A stretch of 64,000 bases of DNA, taken from Thecamonas trahens ATCC 50062 (lineage: Eukaryota; Protista; Apusomonadida). A model generated the notes under the pieces. It was not told where the DNA came from and made no database searches. It worked only from the letters and a program-made list of their open reading frames with translations. This document shows positions 14,536-55,840 of the stretch, piece by piece. How positions within the stretch are numbered: the first letter of the stretch is position 1; every line of letters begins with the position of its first letter. The stretch lies in assembly GCF_000142905.1 (NCBI RefSeq), contig NW_013657623.1:191175-255174 (forward strand), in the 5' to 3' direction. The translations under genes and the position numbers were made by a program.

Positions 14536-15016
14536 CAGCTGGCGAGCGGCTTGGCCTTGTCGGCAGCATGAGCGGCGAAAAAAAAGACGAGGCGCGCCGT
14601 CAACCCGAAAAAACATCGCCAAAAAGGGCTCCGCCGGCCTGCCCCCGTTGCCTGTGCGAGGGCTTGCTCTCACTTGAGCCGCGGCCACCACTCGTCTGCC
14701 CGGACAGCGGCCGCGGCAGCGACACTGCAGCAGCTTCCTCGTCACCAGCACCAGGCCCCTCTCCCTCTCCCGCCCCTCTCCTCTCTCCTCAGCGTGCTCC
14801 TCCGCTCTACCTCCCCCTGAATCTCCCGCTACACCACCACCCGTCTCCTCGCCCCGCCGCCACCTGAGTCGCCGAAAACCGACTTTTTTTGCAGCCTCTT
14901 TCGCATTCCTTTTCCGACAAACGCTCTTCGATTCCCAGCCCTTTCCGCTTTGTCACGGTCTGTGTCACGGCACGAGGCCTCGAAAAAATTTGCTCCTGAT
15001 TGACTCGATCGTCCTC

Positions 15017-17122: not shown

Positions 17123-17160
17123 AAACACTCTTGTTTTTTGTCACTCACTCACTCTCTCTC

Positions 17161-26899: not shown

Positions 26900-29800
26900 A
26901 TGTCTCGTAGTCATGGGGCTCGTTCGCGTGACTCTCCCACAGCTCCCGTACGGACTGCCTCGGAGGGTTCTGCCGAGTGGGCCACTCGGGCCTCCGCTGG
27001 CAATGGGCACACAAGAGAAGGGAGCCAGGAGATGGTCGGAGCAGATGGTGGGGTTGAGCGACAGCATACGGAACAGCGTTCTGGGCAGGGAGCAACAATG
27101 AGTCCAGGCTCGTCAGAGGCCGGCTCGGCGGTCAACAACATGAACACATCGGCTCCGGTCCATCCGTTACTCTCCATCGATGTTGGGCAGGCCAGACAGG
27201 CGGCAGTGGCGAGGGCCAGAGAGCAGAGTGTCCGCTCGCGCGCAGCGTCGGGTGAAGAGTCCGCCAGATCGCCGTCGACGGGATCGGTCATCATCCGCAG
27301 AAGGTCGTCGCTGAGAGACTCGACCGATGGGAGGATCTCTGACAAGTCCATCGACTCGGTTGAACCGGTCTCACACGGCTCGGTCGTCATCCGAAAGCTC
27401 TCCCTGCGTGAGAAGGACAAAGCAAAGTCAAGCATGGACCCTAAGCTGCTGTCGAGAAAGGGCAACCGTAAGCTGTCAGATCCGCCGCGGTCGTCGTCCT
27501 CGCTCTCCGACTCAAACTCGCACCTTGGGATCTCGCTCTCGCGCTCGCTCTCAGAGGCGCGTCTCCTGCTCAAGACTGCCCACGAGGACAGTCTCGCCGA
27601 TCTGCTGAAAAAGGGCAAAGGCAAGGGCAAAGGCAAGGGCAAAGGCAAGGGCAAAGGCAAGGGCAAAGGCAAGGGCAAAGGCAAGGGCAAGGGCAAGGGC
27701 AAGGGCAAGGGCAAGGGCAAGGGCAAGGGCAAGGGCAAGAAGAAAGGCAAAAGAAAGGGCAAGAAGGGCAAGGGCAAGGGCAAGAAGGAAAGGGCAAGAT
27801 GCCCCTGTCAGGTGTCGTCGGTGATGGCAACGGTGAGACAACGCCCGGATCGCCAGGCGTGATCGCCGGCAGCTTGCACTCACCGGTAGGCAACGAGACG
27901 CCCAAGTTTGACGCCATGACTGGTGCGCAGCTTGTGCACTCTTCAGGGGTATCGTCGGATGAGGCCTCGTTCGAGTCGTACTCGTCGTCGTCGTCGTCAT
28001 CATCGTACTCGTCGTCAAGATCCTCAGCCTCTTCCTCGTCCTCAACCTCAGCCACATCCTCGTCTTTGGCTATCTCCTACAACCCGTTCTCGTCGCCGGT
28101 CGATGTGGCCGGCGCAAGCGACACGCACGGGACATTTAATCGGATTTCGCCACAGTCGCCGGTGGTGCCGATGACGCCGTCGCGCATGACGTTTATGGAC
28201 GGCGAGGCGCATGTGGCGTCGGACAGCCAGCCACTGCCGCACCGAGACATGTCTGTGCATGAGGCGCTGGTGCAAGTTGAGAAGCTCTGGACCGCGCTGC
28301 ACGTCCCGCAGCCGGAGCGCGAGTACTACCGGGCGGCGTGGGCGGCCAAGGGCAAGATTGGTAGGCAGTCCGGAGCCGCTGCCATTGGCGCGCGGCTAAT
28401 GGTGTCGCTGCTCGAGGCCCACCGGGCGCGGACGCTCGAGACAGCCAAGGCAATTGCGCGGGTGGACAAAGCGCTCAAGGGACTCTCCGGTGGCGACGAA
28501 TCGACCCGGCGGCTGGAGCAGATCGCCAAGCGGGTCAAGGCCGCCATGACGGCGGTCCGCGCCTGGCAGCAGGGACTCGGCCACGCGCCGCATCCGTTCA
28601 TGTGGCGCGGGACATCATGGATTGTTGCCATCTCGCACACTCTCCTCCAGCTCCTCGCGCGCCACGACGGCGATGTTCGGCTCGAGCCGCTGGTCGAGCT
28701 CCAGAACGACCTGCTTGTCCGCATCGGCGGCGAGTCGGTCATGCAGATGTACGTCGACTCGGTCCACGTCTCGGGGCATATGATGTTTACCTTTCACTCG
28801 CGGCTTACCTACAGTGTGGCGGAAGATGCTGCTGCCGGCAACCTGTTCGAACCGCTCTCTGTGGTGGAAATCGGGCCCATGAACGCCGGCTCGCCTGTAC
28901 CCAACGGCCGCTCGCCACCGAGCCCAACCTCGCCCCACCACCAGGCGCCGCCCGCCACTGCAGCGCCCGGCACTCGCTCACACTCGCCGCTTGCCCCCAC
29001 GCGGGGCCGCTCGCCGCGGGGGCGCGGCACTCGCAAGCGTAGTCGTGGCCGTGGGCGCGGACGTGGCCGTGGCAGCCCTGCCAAGAGCTCACCAAGTCGT
29101 CGGCGTGGATCAGCGAAGCGGGGGTCGGGCAAGCGCGGGTCGGGACAGCGCAGCGTTGGTGCTCATGGCTCACCGGGCGCCAAGACCGGGCGGGGGCGCG
29201 GGCGTAGACGTGGTCAAGACAAAGTCGGGCCCGTTGCCACAGCCAACACGAATGCCGGCGACGGCGGCGCGGCGAACAAGGAACTGATTCCTGTTCAGCT
29301 CACGGCCGGCGGACCGGTGACGTACATGACCCGCGAGGAGCAAGCGAAGTTTGATGCTGGCGTGGCAAGTTCAAGTAGTGTAGAGCGAAGCGGAGCCGCT
29401 CCGCGACCGGTCCACGCGGCGCTGGAGCGCCCGCCGGTCCCCGGGCCGATGAACCTGCCGCCGGTGGCAGCAGGCGAGGGCGGAGAGCTAGAGTCTGGCT
29501 CGGTCGAGTCCGAGGCCGACGATGAGGTGCCAGGCGGTGGCTCGGGCCCGCGATGGCGGTTAGGCAAGACCAACCGGAAAGTGGCACCCATTGTCGAGTC
29601 GTCGCTGCCAAAAATCTCGTCATCGTCGTCGGTGGCGTCGGAGATGTCCGGCGCCGGCTCGGGCGACGCCGACGACGCCGGCTCGGCCTCGGGTAACGCC
29701 ATCGAGCTGCGGATTTTCTCACCACAAGGCTCGATGCGGAAGCACAAATTCAAGACTGCATCAGGGCAGGTGCGACCAGCGCCAGCGCCAGCGCCAGCGC

Positions 29801-30210
29801 CGGCGTCAGCGCCCAAGGCTGTTCCCAAGACTGTGCCCAAGGCTGTGCCGGCGTCGGCGTCGGCGCACCCCGGCTCCGACTCGGGATCTGACACTGAAGA
29901 CGGCGACGGGGCTGACTACAGCCAGTCGCACACCAGCCTTGCGCGGTCCGACTCTGTCCTCCTCCCGCAGAACGTGACCTATTGTCTCGTCCGGCGCGAC
30001 GTCCGCGAGTCGGCCTCAATCTTTGTCCACACCGCGGTCCAGCCGCCGGTCTCGACGTCGCTTGTCAGCGGCCATCAGCTCCCGATCCGATTCGAGATCG
30101 AACGGCAGGCCGTGCTCGTGCCGGAGCACTCGCTCACTCTCCCGGGTGTCTCTCCCTCTGCCGTTGGCTCACCATCGGGTGACCACGACGACAGTTTTTC
30201 CATGGGATGA
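26900..30210 (+). CDS. ~1100-aa largely disordered protein with a (KG)n tract and a central helical domain loosely like the MAP65/Ase1 C-terminus; one apparent -1 frameshift near 27790
   Basis: ORFs 26900-27862 and 27799-30210 join if one base is added (KKEKGKMPL). Central region VEKLWTALHVP..ER...AW...PFMWRG. Function uncertain. Confidence 0.55.
27610..27790 (+). repeat. (AAGGGC/AAAGGC)n hexamer repeat encoding (KG)n
   Basis: More than 20 tandem hexamers. Confidence 0.95.
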
Positions 30211-33974: not shown

Positions 33975-36900
33975 ATGGGCTGGATATGTGTGTGGTCGCG
34001 GACTCTGCCGAGTCTGGTCGTTGTGGTGGTACTTGTCCTCGCTCTGGCGGTGGTGGACTCTCGCTCGAATGGGCCGGTGACCGAAGCGGCCGAATGGCCG
34101 GCAAGCGACGCTGTCCAGCCACGCGTCCGCATTGCTGCCTACTATCAGGGCTCTTCGCCGCACATCTCGCTACTTCAACAATGGATTGCGGCGTACAATG
34201 CATATGCTGCAGGCAACACGAGTGCTGAGCTCGTCCTGTACCCCCTTCCTGACAGTTTCGAGGAGTCCCTTCCCTGGGTCCTTGGTGGCATGGACGTCAT
34301 TCTCACGTACCCAAGTCATGGCGAGACACTGCTGACCGGAGCGTATATGGTCCCGCTTGATGAGGTATGGCAGCGTAACGATCTGGAAGATGCTGTACTC
34401 GCTGTGCTCAAACGGACTCTGGCGGCGGGTGGTGACCACAGGTACGGCGTGCCGGCGCTTGCCCTTGCAGGCGTTTGCACCTACCGCAAGTCGATGTTTG
34501 CTGCGCTCGGCGTGACTGTGCCTAGCCATTGGACAGCCTTGCTCGCGTTGTGTGCCAAGGCCAAAGCTGCCGGGCGGATGTGCCTCGCGGTTGACGTGGG
34601 GATTGAGGGTGCGTCGGCGCTCTTTGACTTACTCTTCATCCGCATGTACGGTCACAAAGCTTACAGCGCATTCCTCCTCGGCGACGTCTCGTTTGTGGAC
34701 GGGCCGGTCCGGTCAGTGATGGAAGAAATCATCTGGCTCCATGAGGCTGGCTACTACGTGGCGTCGGACACACCGGCTGGGCGCAAGCTGCCGCACTCGC
34801 GTGGCGTCCTCAGCAATTCGTCTGTCATCTCGTGCGGCGTCGACATGTTTGCCAGCATGATGAGTCGGGACGAGTCTGCCGACGACCTCGCTTCGTTTGC
34901 CTTTCCTGTTTACGACGGCCCCATTGGGTCGGGGCGCGGCGCGGCGGACATGCACAGCGCACCGTCGACCTCGGTCTACTTGGCTGCTCCGCGAAGCGCT
35001 ACCAATGTGGCCGGCGCGGTTGACTTTCTGGCGTTTGTCTCGTCGGCTGCCGGACGCAGCATTCTCTCGGCGTGGCTGAGCCAGACGCATGCCTCGTGGG
35101 GTGTGCCGGTCTTCAAGTCGGTTGCTGATGAACTCGCGTCGCAGCGGACAGCGCTGGGCCGGCAGCTACTCGACTCTGACACTGCTCCGCCGCTTCCGTT
35201 TTCACGGCGGGGTCTCTCACCGCACCAGCTGTCTGTATCCTGGATTAAGCTGCTGGGCAACGTTCAGTTGGCGGCCACGGTGGCCGATGCACGGGAAGAG
35301 CTCGACGCTGGACTGGAGACGATGGAGGCGATTCGGCTCGCTGAACGGTTCCACAAGGCGTCACCGCCGCGAATGCTTCCAGTATCAGGGACGTACCTGG
35401 GCGATGTCGAGGTGACGATGACAAGTGTGACGCCGAACGCGACCATGTACTACACGCTCGACGGGAGTATGCCGACGCCGAGGTCGGCCAAGTACCGCGG
35501 GCCGTTTCGGGTGCGCGGCGAGGTGACGACGGTCCGGGCCATTGCGGTTGCGTTTGCACTCTACGAGTCGACGGTGGCCCAGGCCGAGTACAAGACAGCA
35601 TCGAGCGCCCAGAGCTACTTGGGCGCGGATGACGATTCGCTCAAGGTTGCACTCGGCGTGTCGACAGCGGTGGTGGCGTGCGCAGTGGTGGCGATTGCGG
35701 TTGGTGTGCTGGCGGTGCGGCGGCGGTTCCGGCGGACAGACGTTGCGCCGCTGGGCGACAAGGCAATTCCGTTTGACGAGTTGGATGTCAAGGGCGTTGT
35801 TGGGCTTGGTGTGTTTGGCATGGAGTACATGGGCGCGTGGCAAGGCAAGGCTGTCGTGGTCAAGCACTTGAGTAACTTTCCGACCCACGGAAGCTTCCGA
35901 CGCGAGTTCAATGTTAACTGGGCGGCGCTGGCAGACGAGATGGAGCACGTCATGCATCTCTCGCACCCGAACGTGTCGGCGGTGCTCGGCTTGGCGCGCT
36001 CGCCGCCGGTCCTTGTCAACGAGTTTGTGCCGCGCGGCTCGCTGTACAATGTGCTTCACACGCGGCACATTGCGCTCGACTCGAGTGTCATTTTTATGTG
36101 GGCACACAAGCTGTGCGAGGGCATGGCGTACTTGGTGGAGCACGGCGTGACGCATGGCAGCCTCTCGTCGCTCAGCATCCGACTCGACAACGGGTGGCAG
36201 CCGAAGCTCTGTGACTTTGGCTTTCCGCTCCTCCGGACCGGCTCGACCTCGGCGCGGAATGCGCTTGATCGGACGCACCTTGTCGAGTCTGGGCGCCTGG
36301 TGGCGTCGTCGTCTGGCTTCGGCTTGTCGAGCACGTACATGTCGACCGGCCATGGACCGAGGTTGATGGCAGCGGTGCTGGAGGGCTCGCTCTCGGCTGG
36401 CTCGACGAGCCAAATGTTCGGCTCTGTAACCGAGGGAGAGATGAATGTGGCCAAAGAGCTGCCGTCTGCTGAGTCGATGTACTGGCTAGCGCCCGAGGTG
36501 CTCCAGCTCGGGGCGAATGGGTTGTCGCGTGCGGCGGATGCGTATGCGCTTGGCATTGTACTGTGGGAGCTGACGACACGGCGCGACGTGTACTGGGCGG
36601 AGAATCCGCTTGCGGCGGCGCTTGATGTGGTGCGCAACGAGAGGCGGCCCAACGTGGGCGAGGTGCCGGTTGTTTTTGATGACATCCGCAGCGTCATGGT
36701 CGAGTTGTGGCGGCCCGAGCCCGAAGCGCGGATGGAGTTTGTGGTTGCGGCGCATGCGCTAGGTGCGCTTTACAGCGAGAGCCATGTCATTCTCCCCCGA
36801 TGCATGGCGGCGGTGGTAGGCCGAACAACAGTGGTCCACTGCGAGCTTCTGGGTGCGCTCCGGGGCTTGCTCTGCGGAAGTAAGGCCGAGACCGCGCGCC

Positions 36901-38615
36901 TGACGGCGTTCCACCACGGCCTCCCGGAGCTGGCCAAGCGGACGGGCGGCACAGTGTTTGAGTGGGGCTTGGGGTGGGTGACAGCAGTCATGGAGACGCG
37001 GCAGTCGGTAATTGACTTTGCGCGGTTTATCCGCGAGTTGGAGCTGTCTTCGGGCCCGGTGACAGTGATGGCGACGCATGCCGAGCTAGAGGCGATCGAC
37101 GTCGACGCAGGGCGGCGGACCCTTGCCGGGCCCGCCATGAGCGCCATGCGCACCAGCTGGCGAGCCATGTTTGGCCCATACCGCAACGAGAATCTCACTC
37201 GGCACACGGGTAATGGGCACGCCCCATCGAGCGCAACCGGAGTGTTTGCGGTCGGCGAGCTGGCATCTGTGCTCAAGGGTGACGTCCATGTCACGCTGCA
37301 CAAGGTCGGCCAGCCTGGCGTGTGGCAGCTGCTGCGAGTCGGAGAGGCGCCTGTTGAGCTCGACGCTGACGCTGTCGCAAGAGATGGGACGCTCGGCAAA
37401 GGAGCGAGACGGCGGGGCAGGGCCATGTCGGCTGGTGCGGCCAGCGAGGCGCTTTCGTCGGAACTGTCATCGTCATCGTCAAGCCTTAGCGGCGAAGAGC
37501 GAGAGAGCACAAGCATTGCTGAACGGGTTGCATCTGCAGGAACGCTTGGCGTGCAGGAGCAGTCGCGAGCGATGCTTCGCGAGGTGACAGCCGGCGTGAC
37601 GGCGCTGCACCTGCTGACGACGAGCGAAGTGGCAGCGATGGTGGAGCAAGGTGGCGAAGTATGGCAGAGCTCACTAGGCGTTTCGCACAAGGCCGAGCTT
37701 CCGTACGGCGACGATGAGGAGCTCACGCACCCTGTAGTCGTCAAGGTTCTCGCGCGGCAGACGTACTCGGCATCGGAGCTGGTGGTGTTTGCGGCAGTGT
37801 GTGTGGAGGCAGCGGCGACGCAGGTGGGCGGCGTGATGGGGCCGATTGCGGTGTGTGTAGAGGCACCGTACATGGCAATTGTGACGCCGCGGTTTGAGCA
37901 GGGCTCGCTAGCGGATGCGCTGACGCTCTCGATCTCATCTGTGACAACACAGCGGGTGCGCGATGTATGTGTCTCGATACTGTCGGGTCTTGCAGCACTG
38001 CATGCGGCGTCGGGCCGCGGGCACGGCGCGCTCCGCCCGTCGAACATCATGCTCGAGGGCCGCGGCTTGGGCGAGGCAGCGTCGCGGCGGCTGGCGGTGA
38101 CGCTGGTCGACTTTGGGCTAGAGGCGGTGCGGACTAACCTGGGGACGGTGACGCAAGTGCCGGTTGTGCGGTACATGTCGCCTGAGGCGCTTCGTGGGGT
38201 GGCCGGCTCGCAACAGGGCGACATCTTTGTGGCGGGCACCATCATATACGAGCTCGTAACCGGCTTTCCCGCCTTTGGCGACGAGAGCTCGTCGCTCGAA
38301 GCGGCGATGGACATTGTCGACGGAAAACGGCCGGTGCTCGATGAGCATCTTGTCTTCTCCGAGTCGCTGCGGAGCCTCATCCAGCGGTGCTGGCTAGAAA
38401 ATGCCCAGCTTCGGCCGAGTGCTGATGAGTTGCTGAGCGAGCTGAGCAAGCTAGCCGTCGGCGACTTTATCGGTGTCCAACGGCGAGCTGCGCACGGCCG
38501 GACCATTCCCGCGGGAGCAACAGCCTCCGAGTCAAGCTCGACAGCACGATCCGGTGTGAGCATGGGCACCCACGGCCCGCCACGACCGCATCCTGCCCAG
38601 CTCCGCCTCACATAG
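33975..38615 (+). CDS. Receptor: signal peptide, bacterial-type solute-binding domain, chitobiase/Fn3-like domain, TM, kinase-like, degenerate cyclase, kinase-like
   Basis: SBP motifs YGVP, TYRKSMF..LGVTVP.HW..LLALC. TPNATMYYTLDGSMPT. TM VALGVSTAVVACAVVAIAVGVLAV. Two TKL-like domains with DFG and APE/SPE but HGS/HGA replacing HRD. Confidence 0.85.
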   Translation: MGWICVWSRTLPSLVVVVVLVLALAVVDSRSNGPVTEAAEWPASDAVQPRVRIAAYYQGSSPHISLLQQWIAAYNAYAAGNTSAELVLYPLPDSFEESLPWVLGGMDVILTYPSHGETLLTGAYMVPLDEVWQRNDLEDAVLAVLKRTLAAGGDHRYGVPALALAGVCTYRKSMFAALGVTVPSHWTALLALCAKAKAAGRMCLAVDVGIEGASALFDLLFIRMYGHKAYSAFLLGDVSFVDGPVRSVMEEIIWLHEAGYYVASDTPAGRKLPHSRGVLSNSSVISCGVDMFASMMSRDESADDLASFAFPVYDGPIGSGRGAADMHSAPSTSVYLAAPRSATNVAGAVDFLAFVSSAAGRSILSAWLSQTHASWGVPVFKSVADELASQRTALGRQLLDSDTAPPLPFSRRGLSPHQLSVSWIKLLGNVQLAATVADAREELDAGLETMEAIRLAERFHKASPPRMLPVSGTYLGDVEVTMTSVTPNATMYYTLDGSMPTPRSAKYRGPFRVRGEVTTVRAIAVAFALYESTVAQAEYKTASSAQSYLGADDDSLKVALGVSTAVVACAVVAIAVGVLAVRRRFRRTDVAPLGDKAIPFDELDVKGVVGLGVFGMEYMGAWQGKAVVVKHLSNFPTHGSFRREFNVNWAALADEMEHVMHLSHPNVSAVLGLARSPPVLVNEFVPRGSLYNVLHTRHIALDSSVIFMWAHKLCEGMAYLVEHGVTHGSLSSLSIRLDNGWQPKLCDFGFPLLRTGSTSARNALDRTHLVESGRLVASSSGFGLSSTYMSTGHGPRLMAAVLEGSLSAGSTSQMFGSVTEGEMNVAKELPSAESMYWLAPEVLQLGANGLSRAADAYALGIVLWELTTRRDVYWAENPLAAALDVVRNERRPNVGEVPVVFDDIRSVMVELWRPEPEARMEFVVAAHALGALYSESHVILPRCMAAVVGRTTVVHCELLGALRGLLCGSKAETARLTAFHHGLPELAKRTGGTVFEWGLGWVTAVMETRQSVIDFARFIRELELSSGPVTVMATHAELEAIDVDAGRRTLAGPAMSAMRTSWRAMFGPYRNENLTRHTGNGHAPSSATGVFAVGELASVLKGDVHVTLHKVGQPGVWQLLRVGEAPVELDADAVARDGTLGKGARRRGRAMSAGAASEALSSELSSSSSSLSGEERESTSIAERVASAGTLGVQEQSRAMLREVTAGVTALHLLTTSEVAAMVEQGGEVWQSSLGVSHKAELPYGDDEELTHPVVVKVLARQTYSASELVVFAAVCVEAAATQVGGVMGPIAVCVEAPYMAIVTPRFEQGSLADALTLSISSVTTQRVRDVCVSILSGLAALHAASGRGHGALRPSNIMLEGRGLGEAASRRLAVTLVDFGLEAVRTNLGTVTQVPVVRYMSPEALRGVAGSQQGDIFVAGTIIYELVTGFPAFGDESSSLEAAMDIVDGKRPVLDEHLVFSESLRSLIQRCWLENAQLRPSADELLSELSKLAVGDFIGVQRRAAHGRTIPAGATASESSSTARSGVSMGTHGPPRPHPAQLRLT

Positions 38616-39078: not shown

Positions 39079-40944
39079 ATGCCAATGGAGTCGATGCTGC
39101 TGAGACGCAGAGTCTTGCGCAATCGGACTGTCCGGATTCCCGCCTCGCCCACAGAGTCTGCCGTTGCGCTGGCCAACGTCTTGCCATCGCCGCGTCGGTC
39201 GGCTCGCGGGCGGCCTGACATGTCACCGCCATCGTCGTCGCCGCCGCCGGTGGAGACGATGCAGTCGCGCGGGGGATCGCCTCGGCGTGTCACTCGCGGC
39301 GCGTCGTCGTCGGTCTTTGCCTTTGACAGCCATACCGAGGCGGCCGGCCCATCGCCTGCTGATTCGCACAGCCGGTCGCGGTCACAGTCGCGGTCGCGGT
39401 CGCGGTCGCGGTCGCAGTCGGTGGCGCGCGAGGTGCGCGAGCGGAGCGTGACGATCGAGGTGGACGTTGGAGCAGAGAGCAAGGAGCCGATGGCGATGAG
39501 GATGGAGACTGTCTTTGCCTTTCCGTTCAACTACGGTGATGAGGCGTTGGAGGCCAAGGGAATGGGCAGCGGGGTGGGCACGACGCTGCAACGATTTGTG
39601 TCGGCAACGAACACGCTTGTGGGCGCTGCTGTCGGTGCCCCGCTCGATCAGTGGCAGCCTGGCGAGTCTGCCCGGAACAAGGATATGGAGTTTGAAGAGA
39701 TGCTCCTGGTGCGCCGGCTCGCTGCGCTCGAGCTGGGGTACGCGGATGCGCGCGTAGTGGCAGACCGGGTGGGGACCGAGGCGTGGTCGCTGCCGGTGGC
39801 CCTCCACATTGCAGGAGGTGTTTCCGCCGAGCTGGTGAGCGTGGAGGTGCAGCTCTACTCCAAGTCGGTCGGCCTTCTCATGTTTTCGGTTGCGTCCGAC
39901 GAGCGTGTTGAGATCAACGAAACCATTGTACTGATCAACGTGCTGCGGCGGCTGACCGAGGCCGACAACGTCTTTGTCACGCCGCATCAAGAGCACTCGC
40001 CGCAGCGGCGGCAGCGGAGGCGGGCGTCGGGTGGCGGCAGCGGGCTCTTTGGCACGCCGCGGGTCTCGACTGTCGGGCCTGAGGCACCGGTCGCGTTTGC
40101 CTCGCGCGACCTCGTGTCGTCGGCGCTCAACGCAACGCTTGGACGCGGGGCGTGGACAGCGGCCGGTGGCCTCGATCGGCTCTTCACTTACACCACGGTA
40201 CTGGCGTCGCTGCCAGAGGAGGCCAACGACTTTGCGCTGCGGCGCAAGGTAGCGTACCATCTGGCGACGGTGACGCGGCTGCTGACGCGAGTCGACGAGT
40301 CGTTCATCGAGGAGTTCACCGAGAAGAATGGGTACGGGCGGTTCCTGACCGAGGCCGAAGGCGGCTCGCACATTGTGTTCTCGCACAACGGTGGAGCTGC
40401 GGTGGTGGTGGGCGCGCCAGGCTGCGACTCGGCGGCCATGCTGGCCAAGGGCTGGAAGGGCACTCAGCGGTATACCAAGGCGCTCATCGAACCGCTTCTC
40501 TACCAGCGGACGTATCTGCAATCGCTCGGGGAGCAGCTCTCTGAGCTGATGCTCGCGCGACGAAAGACAAGCTGCCTCGACGAGCTCGCTGAGATCCACG
40601 GCTCGGTGCTGGAGTTCAAGGCGCGCTACTCGCAGCGGTCGATCTTCAAGACCCGGTCGATGAAGGAGCTGTTCGCGATCTGGTCAGCTACCGTCGGGCT
40701 CGACGTGCTCAACTCGTCGCTTGCCAGTTCTATCGGCGACCTGCACACCTACTACTCGGACGTCTCGTCGCGCAACACCCAGAAACGGCTCGACGTCCTC
40801 GCGGTTGTCCTTGGCATGCTCACGCTCGCCGAGCTCGTCATCAACGTCTACTTTTCTGACGCCGACTGGTGGGTCCCGCTGGCTGTCATCGGCGTCTTTG
40901 GCGTCCTCGCCGCCATCATCCTCATGCTGTACGTGTTCAAGTGA
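39079..40944 (+). CDS. Intronless divergent CorA-like protein with two C-terminal TM helices (no canonical GMN)
   Basis: Long helical stalk (LYQRTYLQSL...LEFKARY...ELFAIW...IGDLHTY) followed by two TMs. N-terminal FAFPF, VQLYSKSVGLLMF, INVLRRL and DRLF motifs resemble bacterial divergent CorA-like proteins. Confidence 0.6.
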   Translation: MPMESMLLRRRVLRNRTVRIPASPTESAVALANVLPSPRRSARGRPDMSPPSSSPPPVETMQSRGGSPRRVTRGASSSVFAFDSHTEAAGPSPADSHSRSRSQSRSRSRSRSQSVAREVRERSVTIEVDVGAESKEPMAMRMETVFAFPFNYGDEALEAKGMGSGVGTTLQRFVSATNTLVGAAVGAPLDQWQPGESARNKDMEFEEMLLVRRLAALELGYADARVVADRVGTEAWSLPVALHIAGGVSAELVSVEVQLYSKSVGLLMFSVASDERVEINETIVLINVLRRLTEADNVFVTPHQEHSPQRRQRRRASGGGSGLFGTPRVSTVGPEAPVAFASRDLVSSALNATLGRGAWTAAGGLDRLFTYTTVLASLPEEANDFALRRKVAYHLATVTRLLTRVDESFIEEFTEKNGYGRFLTEAEGGSHIVFSHNGGAAVVVGAPGCDSAAMLAKGWKGTQRYTKALIEPLLYQRTYLQSLGEQLSELMLARRKTSCLDELAEIHGSVLEFKARYSQRSIFKTRSMKELFAIWSATVGLDVLNSSLASSIGDLHTYYSDVSSRNTQKRLDVLAVVLGMLTLAELVINVYFSDADWWVPLAVIGVFGVLAAIILMLYVFK

Positions 40945-40993: not shown

Positions 40994-43900
40994 TTACTCG
41001 CTGGCGTTGAGGTCGTCAAGGCCAGGCGGGCGCATGCAGACTGCTGACGGGCTCGGCTCAAAGGCGGCAAGCATGGAGACGAGCGCAGACATGGGAAGAT
41101 TGTGGACGCCGCGGGAACGAAGACGCGCGAGATCGGCGCCGGTAGTGACCAGCTCGAGGATGCCGACGGCGTAGCCGGCCTTGGTGGCCGAATCTAGGTA
41201 GGGCGCCAGGCTTGCAAGCGTGACCGATGTGTTGTCGACAATGACCAAGCCGACGTCGGTGGCAAGAGCATCATTAAAGGCTGTCTGGCACGCGGCGTGG
41301 GCGAGTGGGAGGAGGCTGGTGTCAAAGACGGCGGCGTAGACCTCGTGAGGCAGCATGCCCTTGCGCTTCTTGGCGGTCAGCTTGCCGGCACCGGCCTCAA
41401 AGTAAGCATCTGCCGAGACGACCGAAATCTCGTCGCCGGCACGTCCGAGCTGAGCTACGATCTCGGTGATGAGCGTCGACTTGCCGGTACCGGGCAAGCC
41501 GCGGACGAGGAGAACTTTGCGCGTGGCCTTGCCCAGAGGATCCAGCACATGTTCGATGACGTGAGATGGAGTGGCCACATGGAGCGGCGACGGTGCCGGT
41601 GGTGCTTTCCCGGCATCGTCGCGCCAGGCCGCGTACGGTCGCGTGATGGTGACCGTGAGCTTACGCGAGGCCTTCTTGCCTTCGGCGTGCGTAGAGAAGC
41701 CGTAGCTTTCCGCAAGCTCGTGAATGATCTTGCGCTGGTCGGCTGTGGTGGTGCCGGCCTTGAGTTTGAGTTTCTCGCCCGGAAGGCCGGCCTCGAGAAG
41801 CGTGGCAAGATCACGGCGGAGGCGCGTAGGAAGGCCGATGGAAGCGATGGCGTCAGAGAGTGCATGCCATGAAAGGCTGGCCGGCACTGCGCCGGCATGG
41901 TGCGTGTCGCTGCCAGTGATTGTGTGCCCGACATGGCCGACGAGTCTCGCAAGGGTTGGTGGAACGTCTGCGCGCTGTGCACCAGCGCAACCAGCAACGT
42001 CAAGCCCGATCGCTGGCGCTCTTCCCGAAGCCATACCGAGTGTGAGATGGGCAACCTGGCCGTGCGCAAGCGGCATGCGAGCAGGCAGGTCGACGAGGGC
42101 AACAAGGCCAGCGTCCGGTACATAGGCAAACGACGCAGCCGCAAACTCAATGGAGGCGCCGGTGAGTGGAATGAGCTCGGCGAGGAGATCGTTAGCGGGG
42201 CGGTGAGCAAGGGTGATGTGCGGCGGAGCGAGCGGGCGAAGAAGATTACAGCTGCTCGCGTCAGGGCTGAGGCCAAGGCCAAGAAGCGCCGCATGCCACA
42301 GGGCGTCCGCGTCCTTCTCCGAGACAAAGATCGCTGTGTAGATGACAGCAGCGTCGGTCGGCAGTGGCAGAGCAGTGATCACACCTGGGGGCGCCGGGGC
42401 GGTGGATCGGGGGTAGCGGGCGAGCGCGCGCGGCGATGCATGACACTCGTGGCGGTGAGTGTAGATGCGAGCGAGAGGCTCTGGCAATGCGTTCGAGACA
42501 GCAAGAAGGCTGGTGAGGGATGTGGCGGCAGCGTCGAGACAAGCGGGAGGCAGAGGACGGGCGCACCAGTCCAGATCGTCATGGGCGTCGGGCGCGCAAA
42601 ACGCGCGAAGCGGAGCAGAGTCGGGCAGGGTGGCCAGAGCGGCGTCAATGTCGCGGCCTGCAGTGATGACACGGATGTCAAGTCCGGGCGTGGCAGCCAT
42701 TCGCGTGATGACTGTGCCGAGATTGCAGCTGGCCTTGACGAGGTGCGGCGAGTCAGTGATGAGGCTGCAGAGAGCGGCGACGAGGTCGGGCGGAAGAAGG
42801 GTAAAGGTGAGGAGGTCGATGGCCCAGGAGCGGGGCGGGGCGTTGGGTGTCTCGAGGGCAAGGCCTAGAACAAGCGGGCTTGTGCGTCCGCCGCCCGGCC
42901 AGAGCTGAAGAGCAACCGCGCGTAGGTCCGGCACTGCGAGTGCGTCGACGAGACCGGCGATGCCCCAGGTTGCCGGTGGAGGAGCTGGCGATGGTGGAAG
43001 AGACAGGGTTGGAAGGCTAGGGGCATCAACAGCGCCGACAAGAAGCTTCAGCTCGTAGGCAGAGCGCTGTGGTGTGGAATGGTGGACAAAGACCCCGCCG
43101 CGGGCGATCCAGGGGTGCGATGCTTGAGCGAGTCATCGATGAGGACGGCGCCAGGGATCGCAAACGGAGACTTGTCCGAATCCTCAGCAAAGAGCACACG
43201 GTCAGCGGGTAGGCCGAGATGGGCCTTGCACCAGGCTCGCTTTTTCTTGCGGGCCTGCTTCCCGATTTTGCCGTGAGGCACAGCAGTGAGGATGTGGAGC
43301 GAAGCGATGGCACCGGCAGCACGCAGGTCGAGAAGGGACTTCCACAGGATGGCAGCGCCGTCTGTCAGAGCGAGTGAGCCAAAAAAGCCCGCGCTCGAGC
43401 CGATGAGTTTCCACATCTTGGCCGGACCGAGCTCTGCCGAGCTCATGCCGCGCGAGAGGGCACGGACGCCAGCCTCAAAGTCAGCGAGTACGCCGTCGAG
43501 GTCGCAGAAGACCGGTGGGGGCCTGATGGCGAGCGAATTGAGCTCGATGCGGCAAGCAGGTCAGCCTTGTCGGACTCGACAGCGAGTCGGATAGCAACTC
43601 CGCGGTCGATGGATGCCTCGATACCGGTGGTGAGCTGGCGGAGAGTGATGGAAGAGCCAACCGGGACAAGGCAGGCAGCGATGGCACGAGTAGCACCTGA
43701 TGCGGCGTCGGTGGCGCAGACGCGCCAGTGGGCGAGAGCAGCCGAGCCCGAGAAGGCCGAGACGGCAGCAGCGGGCGGGAGGAGATCGATTCGGAGCTCG
43801 CGCGAGCCGTCCTTGCAGTACTTTTCCCAGAGGCCCTTGATGGCACCAGTCGACGGGGCGTAGCCCGGCTCGACAGCGAGACGCGTGGCGTCGCCGACGG

Positions 43901-45941
43901 ACCGGACCGGAAGGCCGAGGTAGGCAGCGATCTTGCGTGGAAGGTAGGTGTTGAGCAGGTGCTTGCGGGTCCTGCGGGAGATGGGGACAAGGCTAGACGG
44001 CAAGAGATCGGCCGCGGATACAAAGGTAAGGTCTGCGGTGGTAGCGGCCAACGATGCGGTGGCACTCGGTCCAGGCTCGAAGAATGCCCGATCCGAGGCG
44101 GCGAGCATGGCCAAAGAGGCGTCCCAGGCCAGCCCGAGCCAGGACTCGAGGTCATCGACCGGGGCCGAGGCGAGCGATGCACAGAGGAGATCAAAGCCGC
44201 GAATGGCATCGCCCTTGATGTAGGCGGCAACCATGGTCTCGGATGGAGCAAGGGCTGAGGCGCGGCCTGCTGCAAGCGCCGCGCGCATGTTGGCCTTTGC
44301 GCTGCCAATGCGTGGCGAGACGGCGGCAGCCCAGGCGATCCAGGCAGCATTAAGAGCGGCGAGACGGGAAGCTGCAAGGGCAAAGAAACGCTCGAGCACC
44401 GCGCGCTGCCTGGCACGCTCTGCGGTGTCGAGATGACTGCGGCGCAAGAGGCTGGCCAGGAGAGCAAGGGTATCGTCGGGTGCGTGAGCGGCGTCGATGG
44501 CCGAGGCCCAGAGGGCGGCAGCCGGCGCGCCGATGAGGGTCGGGCGGAGCTTGAGCAGCTCGGCAAGGAGCAAGCACGGCTTGCCGCCGCCGCGCTTGGC
44601 AGCACGCGCGAGGGCGACGTACCACTCGGTTTTGATCTTATACAGCGCCGCGCGAGTACCGGTGCCGATGGTGAGGACACCGCCTTCGGTGCCGACAAGC
44701 GGGGCGAGAGCATCGATGACGCCGGAAAGACCACCCAAGGAGCGAACGGTAGCATCATCCATGAGCAGCTGGGTAATCGGAAGGTTGTAGCTCGCAGCCA
44801 GGTCCTCGAGCCATTCTCGATCCATGTAGCCGCCGGAAACGTTGTCTCGCGCGGCAAGGAGGACGAGGGCGGCGGTAGAGGGCGGGTGGGCGATGACGCC
44901 CGGCGAGCCAGCGCACCACTCGAAGAGCAGGGTCACACCGTGGACAGCAGCAGCATGAAGAGCGGCGGCATCATAGCCGGGCACAGCGGCGGCATGGGCG
45001 GCAACGGTCAGCGAAGGCAGGCCGCGGGTGGCCCAGACGACAGTCGAGCCGAGAACGATGGGCGAGGCGAGCGAGCCGTCGAGCTTTTCGGAGACCAGGA
45101 CTGGGAGGCCGTCAGCGAGGGCACGGGCGACGGCGTCGGCGACAAGGTCAAAAGCGGTTTCTGCGAGCTCGTCGATGTTGAAGAACTTGTGGAAGCGGCG
45201 GGCGAGGACGGCGCCAGAGCGGGCGTCGACGATGAGGCCGCGAGCCTCGCGGCGGGCGGCCCGGCGCCAGGCCTCGGCTGCGCGCTCGCTTCGCTTGCAG
45301 CCAGTGAGATCATCAAGCGGTGGGAAGGCATCGGCCATTGATGCCACGTTCTTGTAGTCGTAGGCGATGTAGGCAGCGTCGGGCGCGACGTCGATCTCGC
45401 GAGTGACGAAGCAGTCTGCGCCGGCAAGCGCTGCAGCCATTCGGCTCCGTACGTCGCCTTCAAGGCTGGGGTAGGCGCCCGAGAGAGCGTACGGCTCCAA
45501 TGCTGAAAGAGGAGGAAGCGAAGTGGCGAGGCAGCTCTTGGGTTTGGGATCGGGGTTGGCGACGGGCGACGGGTTGGCGATGGGAGACGGCAGCGGGTTG
45601 GTAGCGGCCAGCGGCGGAAGCGGGAGATCAAGCGAGCGGGCATGGGCGAGGTGACTTGATGTCGAGTGCATAAAGTCGGCGCCGTTGGCAGAGACGCACA
45701 CGAGTGAGCCATCGACGAGGACGGCGTCAAGGTGACGCTGCGGCGAATCGGAGAAGAGCTCGTCACCCGAGTCGAAAAGAAAGATGCGAACCGAGGCCGC
45801 CGCCCGTGCCGGAAGCTTGAGCTTGGAGATGGCAGCCTTGACGAGGGCGGGCCAAAGCGGAGGAATAACGACGGTCGAGCATGCCACGCCGCGGTTCTTT
45901 CCGGCGTTGCGGCAGAAGGAGATCCGTCGGCGAGAGGCCAT
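40994..45941 (-). CDS. Multidomain RNA repair protein (~1649 aa): KHA-like, Rnl1-type RNA ligase, HAD nucleotidase, degenerate 3'-5' exonuclease, 2H phosphoesterase, R3H, P-loop polynucleotide kinase; two apparent -1 frameshifts (~43520 and ~43113)
   Basis: Ligase: EARGL, RRFHKFFN, EKLDGS, FEW, EGGV, YKIKTEWY. HAD: FCDLDGVLADF and LIDD..W..RGG.F.H. Exo-like: DWCARPL. 2H: HITL/HLTL. R3H: QRKIIHELAE. Kinase: RGLPGTGKST, SAD.YF, VIVDNT, RGVHN.P. Confidence 0.85.
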
Positions 45942-46264
45942 GGGTGGAAGAGGAGTGGTGTGAGATGATGATGTGGTGGGGAGAGGGTGGGGCGGGTGGA
46001 AGGGTGACGGGTGGCGGGTGACGGGTGGGGGGATATATTTTATACAATTTTATCTCAAGCACCGAGACGGGGGAGAACCACGACCTTTTTCGGTCGAGTG
46101 GGCAAAGTGGTGAATGGGCGCGACATCTCGCAAGAGAGCGCCAGACAGGGGGAGCGTGGGTGGGGCGAGGGCGGAGGGGGGAGGGGGACGGGGGAAAGGC
46201 ACACACCTGACTCGCAGGAGCAGTGGGTGTAGAGGAGGCGTGGCGTGCGGAGGGGCCAAAGGAG

Positions 46265-49200
46265 ATGAACGTTGCGCAGAGCGTGCTGTGTGTGCTGGAC
46301 CCGCAGACGGAGGAGGCGGTGCGACGGGCGGGCGAGGCGAGCATCGAAGCGGCGCGGAGTGAGGCGGGGCCATGCCTCGCTGCCGGACGGGCACTCCTTG
46401 GCGACCACCCGGTCGGAGGCGACGGTGAGCTGGCGCTGACTGTTGGCGGTATCGACTTTTACATCCGGGCCCTCCGCAGCCATTGGGGCATGTACCCGGG
46501 CGAGGTCCAGGCCGAGATGACCAGAGAGGTTCTCGGGCTGGCGGCGGCGACGGCGGCGGCGCGTAGCGGCGATGGGCACGTGCCGGCGGTGGTGGAGGAA
46601 AAGGTGGCGGACGCGCTGGTTGCTGTCTCGCTGAGGCATGGCGTGGAGAGCGTGATCAGCGATGTGGCCGAGCTGGCGACCGGCAATGACTGCGCCTCGC
46701 CGCTCGGCTTCCTCGCACTCCGCTCGCTCTCGGAGGCTGCGCTCGGAGTCGGGACTGCTGGCTCTGGGCGCGGGTGGGTGGAGCCTCCGCCGCGGCGGGC
46801 GGTGATGGACGCGATGGTGAGTGCGGCCGAGCCGCTGGCGTCGATGCTTGTGGAGGCGACGAGCAGCGTGGCGAGCAACGCGGCGCACAGCGCGCGGCGC
46901 GAGGTGGTCAAGGCCGGGCTGCAGGCCATGGCGTCGGTGGCCGAGTGGGCGCCGCTGCCGATCCTGTTTGAAGCCAACTTTCTTGGCCTCGCGGCGTCGC
47001 TCCTCGCCGAGCCTGCTGTGGCGGAGCACACGCGGGCGGTGCTGGAGAACATGCTTGTGCGGCGGCGGACGCTGCGGCTGGCTGAGCAGGTGCCGTATCT
47101 GGCCATGCTCGAGTGCCTCGAAGCGTTTGGCGGGGCAGTGGACGGGAGCCGCGGCGTCGAGTCGCACGCCGAGGCTTCGCACGCGCGCGGGGTGGCCGAG
47201 GTCCTTGTTGATCTCGGGACGCTCATGCTCGAGTTTGTGGCGAGCGAGCGGCCACCAGAGGGGCTCGACAGCGCGTTTGGTCCGTTTCTGGAGGTCATGG
47301 TGGTAGCTTCGGCGCATCCTGCTGTGAGCGTCTCGACCGAGGTGCTTCCGTTCTGGTGTGAGGTTGTGGCGTCGCGTGTGGTGCCCAAGGCGACGGACGA
47401 GCTTGCGAGGTCAGACCTGTACGCGACGCTGTGGCACATTGCAGCAGCGCGGGTGCGCAAGGTCGGCGATCCGGAGCTGGATGAGGGCGCGTTTGGCGAG
47501 GCGTCGCGGGCTGTCGGGCTGACGACGGCGGAGTGGACGGTTGCCGCCGGGCGGCAGCGGTCGCTGGCGCTGCGGATGGTGCGCGAGCTGACGCGGATGC
47601 ACCGGCCGGGCGCGGTGGCGTTTGTGGCGACGTTTGTGCGGGAGACGCTGCGCGGGTTAGGCGAGGACGGATACGGGGCGTCGCCGGACGCGAGCTTTGC
47701 GTCGACCTGGTCACCTGTGTTTGTCACGTTTGAGGCGCTCTCGCTGCTTGTGGCGTCGGTCATCGACGAGGTAGCACAGGTCCCGGCGTGGCTCGCCAAC
47801 GCGCCGACCGAGTCGCTTGCGGACCAGGCGGCCGAGACGGCGGCGGCGCGAAAGGCGGCGCTGCTGCCGGACGGGGTCAACCGGTTCGACGAGCTGTACG
47901 AGGCCAAAGGTGAGCTTCTCGGCGAGCTTGACGGCATGCTCGAGATGCTTCTGCAGCTCGAGCTGGGCGAGCTCGGGGCGCCGACGGCGGATCCAGGACT
48001 GATGTCGCGGCATGTGCACATGCTGGTGGCCTTTGCGCCGTTCCTCCGTGAGTTCCCTGACCGGCTCTCGGCAGTGCTGGGCGTCCTGCTCTCGTACGTG
48101 GCGCTCGACGGCGAGAGCGGCAAGGCTGCGCTTGCGGCTGCAGGGCTAAGTGACGGCGCGGTGGCGCGGTACGGCGAGTCGCTCCGGGCTGCTTCGAAGA
48201 AAGCCTCGTCGTCGCTCATTAAGCTCGCGTCGAGTCTCGGGCCTGTGCTTGCGGAAGCGCTGCCTGGCCTGTTGGAGGCATACCAGGAGCTGCAGGTGCG
48301 GGGGCGCTGTCGTCGATGGTGCGGATGCTGCTGGTGGAGGCACTGCTTGTGATGACCTCGCACGTGCCGGACGAAGCGACCAAGGGTGCGCTGCTGGAGC
48401 AAGTACTTGCGCCTGTGACCTCAACACTCGACATCGACGGGATCATTGTGCCGGGGCTGAGCTCGGGCAGGTCGCTTGTGGCGGCGATCGGGCTCGACGG
48501 GAGCGGACTCGACGAGGCGGGTGGGATGCTGTTCAGCGAGGCACACGGGAGCTTTCGGTCGCAGCTATGGGCGTTTGTGCACCTCGCGGCGGCGGTGGTC
48601 AAGCACGGGTCTGTGGGCACGCTTGTGGCGCACCTTGTGGCGTCGTACCTCGAGGGCCTGATGGCGTTTCTGGCGGCGGTCCACGGGGTGTGGGACGAGC
48701 GGGCGCGGGTGCCGGCGCCGTACGACGCGGTGCTGGGCGTTGGTCCGCCGTCGGCGCGGTACCCGGAGCTGGGCGAGGCCGAGTCCGAGCTGGTGTCGCT
48801 GCGGGGCATGCTTGGCTCTGCACGGCGGCAGGCGTACGAGGCGCTGGCGACGGCGTTCTCGCTACACGGCGGGCGGTACCTGGCGAGCGTGGCGTTGCCA
48901 TCCGAGGTGCTGGAGCGGTGCGTGCTGGCCTCGCTCGGCGCACTCTCAGTCCAGCACATCAAGCCGCTGCTGGACGGGTTTGTCTGCCCGATGTTGGGCT
49001 CTGTCAGCGATGCGGTGCTCGACGAGCTGTGTGGGTCGAATGCACTAGTGGCGCTTCTCGCAAGCCTGCACAGCGTGCTTGCTGCCGGGTGGGTGACAGC
49101 GGCAGAGGGCGGGTCGGGCGCGGCGGACGTGGTCGAGGTTGCCGAGGCGCGGGCGCTGTGCGACGGGACGCGGGCGCTGGCGCACTTTCTGGGGCGGGTG

Positions 49201-49944
49201 GCAGTGGTGGCCGGCGCAGGCCTCACCCGCGCCAACGGGTACGGCATGCACGCGCTCAGCGGCTCGGACCGCTCCAGCAGCTCGGAACCGGTCGACGCCG
49301 AGGCTGTGGCGCAGAAGCTGCGGGCGTCGCTGCCGCCGCTGACGGCGCGGCTGCTTTTCACGTCCGAAGCGCTGCTCTCTGCTGTGGCTGGCAGCGCACT
49401 GGCGCTGATGTCGTGGGGCGACGTGCCGAGCATTGCCGAGGCTGCCGATGTGTGCCTGCGGCTTGTGCCGCTGCTGGCGACGCACTCGGAGCTTGGTGCG
49501 GCGTTGGTGGGGACCGAGATGCTCACCGGGGCCATCCAAGCGCTGGCCAACGGCGTCGACGCCAATGCCGAGGGCCTCCTCGTCAATGTCGTGGCCAACG
49601 CATACATGGCGGTCGGCCCGGTAGCTCCGGACCGTGTCCGCTCGGTTGTCGTCCAGATCCCGGGCATGGACGATGCCGGCGTCGTGGCCTTTGAGGAGAC
49701 GCTCCTGGCCACGCGATCGGAGAAGCACCTCCGACGGCTCGTCCGCCAGCTCCTGTCGCCCATCCTCGGCATCAACAACGCGTTTGGGCGGAGCGGGAGC
49801 GCCGGAGCTCCGCGGCGGGATCGCAGCGAGCGCAACGAGCGCAAGCAGGCCGCGTTTGTTGTCTCCAAGCCCCGGCGCGGTGGCGACGACGACAGAGGCG
49901 ACGACGTGTCGGTCGGCGACTCGCTGCGTGCGCTCTTTGGGTAA
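46265..49944 (+). CDS. XPO5: Exportin-5/Msn5-like karyopherin (~1226 aa); one apparent frameshift in the G-run at 48300-48304
   Basis: HEAT/ARM-like helical protein. N-terminal LDP.T....R and C-terminal SEKHLRRLVRQLLSPILG...LRALFG resemble XPO5. One extra G joins QVRG|ALSSMVRMLLVEAL. Confidence 0.7.
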
Positions 49945-53314: not shown

Positions 53315-54660
53315 ATGGCGGCCCGCGGGACTCCTGTACCACCCACACAAGCGGTGACCATCACCGAAGTGTGGGAGGACAACCTCGAAGAAGCATTCAT
53401 CGACATCAGAGAGCTGGTCGACAAGTTCCCCTACATTGCCATGGTACGTCATGGCCACACGCCGGGCGCGACCAGCGGGCCAGGAGCCCCCCGTCGCCGC
53501 CGCATAGCTACCGAGCCGCCGGCTGACGGGGGAGGGAACGGAGAGTCATGCAGGGAGGGCAGAGCGAGAGAGAAGAGGACAGCCGATATGGTAGCCGTGG
53601 TGTGTGGGCAAGGGCTTGTGCGGTGGCGTGTGTAGGGGCAGGGAGCGTGCGGCGACATTGGTGGGTCGGCCCGTACTGAGCGCGTTCCTTTTTTGGTCAG
53701 TGGCGCGCGCCCGCCGCCAGCCGGCAGTGTTGGACAAAGCTCACGGCAGGCACGGGATGTGGGCATGGGTGGGTGTGGACGGTTGACGGCGGTGGTGACG
53801 ACGGCGACGGGCGAGAGTAGGACACCGAGTTTCCCGGAGTTGTGGCGCGGCCAATGGGCCACTTCAAGTCGACGGCCGACTACCACTTCCAGACGCTGCG
53901 GAGCAACGTGGACCTGCTCAACATCATCCAGCTGGGCATCACCTTTGCGGACGAGCGCGGACACATCCCGGCGTGGATGCCGACGTGGCAGTTCAACTTT
54001 AAGTTTTCGCTCGGCGAGGACATGTACGCGCAGGACTCGATCGACCTGCTCACGCGGTCGGGCATCCAGTTCAAGGCGCACGAGGACCGCGGCGTGGACC
54101 CGCACGCGTTTGCCGAGCTGCTCATGTCGTCGGGCCTTGTCCTCATGGACTCGGTACAGTGGATCTCGTTCCACTCGGGCTACGACTTTGGCTACCTGCT
54201 CAAGCTGCTGACCTGTGCGCCACTGCCGTCGCACGAGGACGCCTTCTTTGAGCTCCTTTCGTTGTACTTTCCCAACATCTTTGACATCAAGTTTGTGGCC
54301 CGGTCCATTGGCAAGGCCAAGGGCGGCCTGCAGGACCTCGCCGAGGAGCTGCACGTCACCCGTATCGGGCCGCAGCACCAGGCAGGCTCGGACTCGCTCC
54401 TCACCCTCAACACTTTCTTCCGCCTCCGCGAGACCTACTTTGGCACCGGCTGGGATCCGAGCCCCTACGTCGGCCGCATTTACGGCATCTCCACCTACTC
54501 CCAACGCATGGCAGACGTCGAGAACCACAAGGCCAACAAGGGCGCTCCCGCCCGCCAGCCCGTCCAGCACCTGCCCGCTCACTCGGGCGCCGGCGCCGGC
54601 CGCACCCACAAGTCCTCGGGCAGTAGCAAGAAGCGCCAGAATTCGCGTCGCCGCGGCTGA
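53315..54660 (+). CDS. CAF1: CCR4-NOT deadenylase CAF1/POP2 (CNOT7/8); exons 53315-53443 and 53821-54660
   Basis: EVWEDNL...YIAM|DTEFPG joined by intron 53444(GTACGT)-53820(TAG). FHSGYDFGY, IGPQHQAGSDSLLT. Confidence 0.96.
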
Positions 54661-54937
54661 GCTGCGATTGAACGCAAGTCCTCCCCCTTCCCCACCGCTT
54701 GTTCTTGTCCCCAGCCATCCCCCATGTCCATCGCCAAGGTCACGTGCTCCACGTGGTGCCACACTCCAGCGGCAACCAGCACCAGCACGTGCGACCAACG
54801 CCATCGACTCAATAGAAGGAGAGCCGCGTCAAAGCCACGGCGACAGGCACGACACCAGCGACCACCACACTCTCTCACTCCCCCCTCCCCTACCACCACC
54901 TCACCCCACCGTCCACACCGCCCACTGCCTGCCTGCC

Positions 54938-55840
54938 ATGTCCATCTTCCCGCCACCGCCGCCTGCGCCGCCTCCGCCGCCTCCGCCAGCTGTCCCGGGC
55001 TTCTTCACCATGGAGTACTTCTGCGAGAAGGCGTATCTCACCGTGTGCAACGCCACGGCGGTGCGGTATGTACCGGACGAGGCCAAGTGCATCCCGCCGA
55101 CGCTCACCTCGGGATCGCTGACACTGCAAGAGCCGTCACTGGTCATTGTCGGCCTCGTCTCGGCCATCACCGCCTGGTACTCGGCCTACCGCATCGCCAT
55201 CCATGTCAAGGGCGGCGCGCTCGAGTACGCCTCCTTCTACGGCCTGCTGGGGACCAATATACTGTTCCTCGTCCTTCTACGGACCCTGGCATACGAAGCC
55301 TCCATCATCCACACCGTCATCCTGGGCCTCACCATGGTCCTCACTTCATGGACGTGGTCATCGCTGCTCTTCTGCGGCCTCGCAGACCTCGCCTTCGTTC
55401 CCATCGCCCTTGCCCCTCGCCTCAAGATCTACATCCCGTTCCTCACTGTCATCGGTGTTGGTGTCCTGGCAGGCGCTGTCTCGGGCTGGCATCCACTGCT
55501 GTTTGTATTCTACTACACCGTGCCCATCGCCTGCTTTGTCCTCTTCCTCATCCTCGAGGCGCGGGTCGTGTACACCCTCACCTCGCACCGTCGCAAGGCC
55601 ACTATCTGGATGGGCATCGGCACTGTGGTTGTCATTGCCGCAGTCACTGCCTCCACCGCAGCCTCCAAGTACCTCTGCCTCGCCTTTACCTCCAACTTTG
55701 ACGGCACGTTTTTCTTCTACATCCTCGTCGACGTCGCGTCCACTGTCCTCTACCAGTTCCTCTCTGCCACCAAGACCGGCCTCGACCCCGACGTCCTCAA
55801 CATGCTCCGACTCCAGCGCGACGTGGCGCGCGGAGCGTGA
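54938..55840 (+). CDS. 7-TM protein resembling the chitin synthase export chaperone Chs7
   Basis: FCEKAYLTVC, C after the N-loop, GALEYASFY, SLLFCGL, LFVFYY, S.YLC.....FDG.FF..L...A...LY.F...T follow the Chs7 motif order. Confidence 0.65.
   Translation: MSIFPPPPPAPPPPPPPAVPGFFTMEYFCEKAYLTVCNATAVRYVPDEAKCIPPTLTSGSLTLQEPSLVIVGLVSAITAWYSAYRIAIHVKGGALEYASFYGLLGTNILFLVLLRTLAYEASIIHTVILGLTMVLTSWTWSSLLFCGLADLAFVPIALAPRLKIYIPFLTVIGVGVLAGAVSGWHPLLFVFYYTVPIACFVLFLILEARVVYTLTSHRRKATIWMGIGTVVVIAAVTASTAASKYLCLAFTSNFDGTFFFYILVDVASTVLYQFLSATKTGLDPDVLNMLRLQRDVARGA

Follow-up and report, generated by a model that had tools for sequence, protein, structure and literature searches.

We find that a 621-aa membrane protein encoded in a 64-kb window of the Thecamonas trahens genome (the window being the whole stretch of 64,000 nucleotides that was analysed) is, judged by profile comparison, distantly homologous to the type III CRISPR CorA effector and not to Mrs2/Alr1. 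At the level of sequence profiles, homology to the CRISPR CorA-like family spans the sensor, stalk and membrane parts of the protein. The reading we prefer, with a probability of roughly 0.42, is that it represents a long-resident, stand-alone eukaryotic member of this family that is filter-less, likely forms an oligomeric pore, responds to a nucleotide-like ligand and serves in a stress or anti-viral role. Such a eukaryotic branch is apparently undescribed. We found it described nowhere in the open full-text literature, although large surveys of eukaryotic defence homologues may include the family in their tables, and in the literature consulted the CRISPR CorA effector is described from prokaryotes only. 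The gene, its parts and its tail-to-tail neighbour are laid out as follows.

39079..40944, plus strand: CorA-effector-like membrane protein gene, 621 aa, a single exon with an uninterrupted ORF.
39079..39495, plus strand: N-terminal extension rich in Ser/Arg/Pro (residues 1-139), probably disordered; the start codon is a candidate, and the closest homologue, P0001, lacks the extension and begins at the FxFPF region.
39496..40431, plus strand: soluble alpha/beta N-terminal domain (residues 140-451), the predicted sensor; model pLDDT 74.2, pTM 0.75.
39946..39951, plus strand: R290-R291, corresponding to R152/R153 of B. fragilis CorA in a by-eye motif register with the available alignment.
40174..40185, plus strand: DRLF (residues 366-369), corresponding to D220-R-M-F of B. 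fragilis in the same by-eye register, with Leu at the D219 position.
40432..40782, plus strand: CorA-type helical hairpin and long stalk helix (residues 452-568), from the AlphaFold model and Foldseek.
40795..40935, plus strand: two C-terminal TM helices, from hydropathy and alignment, with GML in mid-TM1 (40813-40821) and without GMN.
40994..45941, minus strand: multidomain RNA-repair-type gene of about 1649 aa, adjoining the CorA-like gene and probably a separate system.

In the whole-protein AlphaFold model (pLDDT 73.6, pTM 0.73) the alpha/beta N-domain is followed by a helical hairpin, a long stalk and two TMs. The initial annotation had described an intronless ORF with a series of motifs and two TMs, and these observations hold: the frame at 39079-40944 (+) is uninterrupted over 621 aa, every named motif is found in it (FAFPF at residue 146, VEVQLYSKSVGLLMF at 255, INVLRRL at 286, DRLF at 366, LYQR at 474, ELFAIW at 530 and IGDLHTY at 552), and two C-terminal hydrophobic segments span roughly residues 573-591 and 597-619. 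An Rfam scan of window positions 30000-56000 returned no match.

The only significant family matches of the protein are to PADLOC CorA-like profiles, namely PDLC01174 (E 2.2e-9, with a match to residues 247-614 that takes in part of the N-terminal domain) and PDLC01043 (E 3.2e-8 over residues 405-587). These values are modest, at 1e-9 versus 1e-37 for the homologue P0033; the same kind of match was obtained for P0001 (E 2.2e-12 over 106-464) and for 12 of 16 further homologues at E<=0.01. The N-terminal domain alone scored 83 bits against an HMM built from 14 other members, whereas 200 shuffled sequences (105 reported) reached no more than 2.6 bits with the same HMM, and the reversed sequence -3.3 bits. 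Taken together, the PADLOC E-values and the N-domain score relative to its controls therefore place the family match above chance. Pfam yielded no CorA (PF01544), Mrs2-like or DUF155 match for the protein at E<=1, nor for any of 20 aligned members at E<=0.1, and NCBIfam and Pfam together returned nothing significant for it. In the ESM Atlas it neighbours unnamed bacterial clusters at 0.96-0.97, in one of which 23% of members are labelled CorA. The suggestion that the protein stands nearer to the CRISPR CorA-like family than to Mrs2/Alr1/RMD1 is thus borne out by the PADLOC matches, the missing Pfam match and the bacterial Atlas neighbours.

Structural searches give an ambiguous picture of a CorA fold over the whole chain. 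In Foldseek the whole model matched CorA best (E 2.7e-5, with a low TM of 0.23 and an rmsd of 16.6), and among the matches listed all were prokaryotic CorA with TM about 0.23. VIA placed the E. coli CorA cytosolic domain sixth (Z 8.5, rmsd 4.8, 149 aligned), amid unrelated helical bundles of equal Z. Folded alone, the N-domain had no Foldseek match at E<=0.001 and no clear VIA match among solved structures (best Z 4.5, rmsd 4.6, 152 aligned; Z 3.2 to the A. fulgidus CorA soluble domain), which fits the description of the CRISPR CorA N-domain as a 'unique fold' (PMC10600005). Neither a PDB sequence search nor a viral structure search at E<=0.001 gave a match, and CRISPR CorA structures were absent from the results of every fold search.

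Relatives of the protein are few. A word-index search recovered one homologue, P0001, at 42% identity, and HMMER with a two-sequence profile recovered 35 proteins at E<=0.001 among 1.84 billion representatives. Twenty of these were looked up, and five bear EukProt names: the choanoflagellates Salpingoeca infusionum, S. helianthica and Diaphanoeca grandis, the sponge Oscarella pearsei and the alga Chlorokybus atmophyticus; the other 15 carry no taxon. Because the Oscarella record is truncated and falls in a choanoflagellate-containing group, contamination is possible. One metagenomic copy (L001) contains a 96-nt GT-AG intron with an in-frame stop, so at least one family member looks like a spliced nuclear gene; a metagenome scan with the closest homologues as queries gave no matches. 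The stalk and both membrane helices are retained throughout the family, and several members carry long low-complexity N-terminal extensions.

The group containing the window protein aligned with the choanoflagellate group at a probability of 100 over 349 columns, and with P0024, P0049 and P0050, which are presumed prokaryotic, at 96 over 215 columns. These three proteins form a small group on contigs of up to 38 kb and have the Y-x-R and LVFHxNAG-type segment seen in eukaryotic members. They are a candidate for the nearest prokaryotic sister. Searches with P0033 or A5 as query confirmed no prokaryotic loci in genome contigs, and none was confirmed in viral contigs or in plasmid and phage records, where three plasmid/phage matches stood at E about 1; no prokaryotic neighbourhoods having been found, P0033 and the three-protein group are presumed to be prokaryotic. 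Two loci from a motif scan (L002 and L003) were dismissed as chance. In trees, three eukaryotic-type groups are each well supported. The 18-row tree, built mostly from full-length rows after 12 of 30 rows were dropped as fragments or near-copies, put the 15 eukaryotic-type rows on one side with support of 97/98 (LG+G4) and 96/96 (mixture model), and with 30 rows this side was recovered in only 40% of bootstrap trees. Since the outgroup comprises only three or four rows, long branches meet and many rows are unlabelled, a single origin of the eukaryotic-type rows is possible, short of demonstrated.

Residues of the putative ligand site were compared with B. fragilis CorA-1 by matching motifs by eye to the alignment in supplement 1 of PMC10600005. 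The motifs follow the same order there as here (CorA-1/this protein): FYFPF/FAFPF, a GVG strand/SVG, RR/RR, DDRMF/LDRLF, YxRW/YGRF, VQR/YQR and ELHQY/DLHTY. In B. fragilis CorA, pair mutants of R152/R153 and of D219/D220 abolish immunity, and according to the authors these mutants may act via assembly instead of binding (PMC10600005), so the residues kept in the 621-aa protein may be structural. In the by-eye register the putative site is partly kept: RR and D220 have equivalents and D219 is lost. Among eukaryotic-type rows, whose overall identity is roughly 20-30%, 13 of 17 retain D-R of DRLF and 15 of 17 retain Y-x-R, and 13 of the 16 rows covering the R153 position have a basic residue there; Arg at the R152 position occurs in three of the 16 covering rows, the RR pair is not retained as a pair in most eukaryotic relatives, and D219 is kept in none (0/17). 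That D-R, Y-x-R and the R153 position persist at such identity suggests a sensor-domain site conserved while the filter is gone. A subgroup with Chlorokybus (P0014, P0017, P0020 and P0039-P0042, one member lying on a 1.5-Mb contig) has lost RR and DR, and its three rows in the alignment are without both motifs; it offers a natural control for the ligand-site idea. To our knowledge, Cas10 is the only SAM-AMP synthase; for this reason, and because D219 is lost in all eukaryotic-type rows, the ligand is probably something other than SAM-AMP itself. Ligands are reported to vary within the family (PMC11229360, PMC13294483, PMC12669027), with SAM-AMP, SAM-AMP2 and possibly cA6 named in the first two of these sources.

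The Mg2+ filter is absent from the protein by the same alignment. The initial annotation had read 'GML rather than GMN', a mis-registration: GML (residues 579-581) lies in mid-TM1, 9-13 residues ahead of the GMN position when set by eye against the available CorA-1 alignment, in which GMN closes TM1. That position maps to residues 588-594 here, depending on the anchor, and holds no such motif. The register thus rules out GML as a degenerate GMN, the filter being missing and not mutated. None of the 16 rows whose TM1 is complete has GMN or GxN at the TM1 end, a count that leaves out four truncated rows; P0050 has GMT, and prokaryotic-type relatives are without GMN in the alignment as well. In canonical CorA, GMN forms the Mg2+ entry (PMC3629940).

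Under our preferred reading, the protein would assemble as a pentamer, as CorA does, and a small nucleotide-like molecule would bind between the soluble domains at the partly kept RR/DR/YxR site. Binding may then open the filter-less pore, and a non-selective ion leak would depolarise the membrane as a stress or anti-viral response. The window holds a single copy of the gene and no sign of its rapid change (three of three differences are synonymous), and a housekeeping role fits these two observations equally well. The main rival, somewhat less probable than the preferred reading, is a housekeeping protein that transports or leaks divalent cations or some other small solute, whose N-domain is regulatory or structural and which has no part in defence. 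Consistent with it are the CorA-superfamily architecture, the potentially structural nature of the residues mutated in B. fragilis, and the conservation of an apparently single-copy gene among housekeeping genes with synonymous-only polymorphism; moreover, a CRISPR-linked type VI-B CorA relative moves Zn, Ni and Cd in liposomes (PMC11662929). However, a transporter sits less easily with the loss of GMN/GxN in all 16 rows with full TM1, the lack of a Pfam CorA match in 20 of 20 members and the very sparse distribution (35 matches among 1.84 billion representatives), and sensor-domain residues are among the most strongly conserved. Were the protein a transporter only, it would still define an unannotated, filter-less CorA-type family missed by Pfam and NCBIfam.

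We also consider it unlikely, if of wide consequence, that choanoflagellates, a streptophyte alga and other protists retain an ancient eukaryotic branch of the SAM-AMP-type CorA effector, acting as a second-messenger-gated pore for death or dormancy. If true, this would imply a new eukaryotic nucleotide or SAM-derived immune signal together with its synthase. Several eukaryotic immune proteins, such as cGAS-STING, viperin, gasdermin and TIR, trace to bacterial anti-phage systems. A eukaryotic CorA branch with a partial putative ligand site would be a concrete bait for a new eukaryotic second messenger, and the choanoflagellate members make the idea testable in a tractable group.

Rather improbable is a membrane-anchored scaffold or receptor that keeps the CorA fold, does not conduct and signals by protein contacts. 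Loss of the filter, a hydrophobic TM1 with a small-residue Gly motif and the long low-complexity N-terminal extensions of several members would all suit such a role, but the stalk and both membrane helices are retained family-wide, and prokaryotic-type relatives are without GMN as well.

The surroundings of the gene are eukaryotic, with TAF8, exportin-5, ubiquilin, a HECT/WW ligase and a prenyltransferase alpha subunit nearby. Its flanks comprise a receptor kinase, the RNA-repair gene and eukaryotic housekeeping genes; no signal-making partner gene, cas genes or NrN, DEDD or lyase partner was found within the 64-kb window. The receptor kinase (33975-38615, +), directly upstream on the same strand, combines a bacterial-type solute-binding domain (SBP_bac_1), an Fn3-associated domain, one TM and tandem kinase domains. 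A multi-pass membrane protein at 54215-55840 (+) weakly matches Chs7, a chitin synthase export chaperone (E 4.4e-5), and a number of long ORFs that have host-like codon use and lack a Pfam match lie at 10642-22415 and 27799-30210 (for example, 14990-17122 +, 17161-20073 -, 19860-22415 - and 27799-30210 +).

The RNA-repair gene encodes a T4 Rnl1-type ligase (PF09511, E 2.7e-15), an NT5C-like HAD domain (PHROG 2643, E 1.6e-15), R3H and AAA_33 P-loop (kinase) domains by Pfam, and two HxT motifs that we take, by eye, to be 2H-like; no 2H profile matched the HxT segment. The product, although eukaryotic, has phage-like parts and an all-in-one architecture for healing and sealing ends. In the assembly the gene reads in three frames, with breaks at 43516 and 43111, and other runs carry one extra base at each of these positions and at 48299 in exportin-5, so these breaks stem from assembly errors, and the gene forms a single ORF of about 1649 aa. 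As the other runs restore the frame, real lesions in the RNA-repair gene and exportin-5 are ruled out. The exportin-5 gene (46223-49944) is split by the one missing base at 48299, which other runs supply, and homopolymer deletions disturb gene calls in the assembly.

The proximity of the two genes had been taken as a hint of a defence module. The distance of 49 bp between their stops was measured exactly as claimed, but it does not point to a module: the window also has convergent pairs separated by 9 bp (50930/50940, glutathione peroxidase and prenyltransferase alpha), 29 bp (60213/60243, one partner without a Pfam match) and 82 bp (55840/55923), which makes 49 bp ordinary and rules out this reading of the gap. 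A two-gene system, in which the gating nucleotide is produced or cleared by the ligase, 2H or HAD domains, would be in keeping with the adjoining, contig-bridged genes, the nucleotide-processing domains of the neighbour and the phosphodiesterases that adjoin bacterial CorA effectors. Yet the genes converge and have no common promoter, other convergent gaps are of similar order, and the tail-to-tail neighbour at L001, the only homologous locus with flanks (1.6 kb downstream, 0.4 kb upstream), is an unrelated, membrane-anchored 417-aa ORF (2549-3802, -), presumably glycosyltransferase-like by eye and without a Pfam or NCBIfam match. Conserved linkage is thus absent in the one locus (1/1) where synteny could be compared; one short locus is a thin test, but overall we hold a module to be very unlikely, and the adjacency is probably coincidence.

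The CorA-like gene is probably long resident in its host, with host-like codon use (CAI 0.69 and GC3 0.81, against 0.61-0.76 and 0.73-0.85 in ten host genes). The stretch is also present in three environmental runs (estuary and marine) from three studies, and contigs bridge the CorA-like and RNA-repair genes. Among 40 of the 41 differences in environmental contigs, three fall in the CorA-like gene, all synonymous, and 30 in the RNA-repair gene, 18 of them synonymous; synonymous-only variation at three sites is weak evidence of constraint. The initial annotation proposed horizontal acquisition; a recent one by this organism is not supported, given the codon use and the homologues in several eukaryotic lineages. 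A recent bacterial transfer into the Thecamonas lineage alone, or a contaminant, is largely refuted, for although the gene is intronless and the nearest large ESM Atlas clusters are bacterial, intronless genes are common in the window, codon use is like the host's, the nearest homologues are eukaryotic or unlabelled, contigs join the gene to its neighbour, and it is present in three environmental runs of three studies.

Compared with known systems, the protein has the stalk helix and 2-TM topology of canonical CorA/ZntB/Mrs2/Alr1 (PF01544) and differs from them in having no GMN filter, no Pfam match and a larger, distinct N-domain. The CorA proteins of type III-D2 and type VI-B1 systems (PMC13294483, PMC11662929) belong to the same broad family, in which ligand and context vary; they are prokaryotic and CRISPR-linked. 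From SAM-AMP-activated B. fragilis CorA-1 the protein departs in the missing GMN, kept in the CorA-1 alignment, and in the loss of D219; CorA-1 sits in a cas10 locus beside NrN, DEDD or SAM-AMP lyase, whereas the 621-aa protein is encoded by a eukaryotic nuclear gene. Nonetheless, both combine a large unique N-domain with a CorA stalk and two C-terminal TMs, their motifs follow the same order, and the 621-aa protein has putative equivalents of RR and D220-R.
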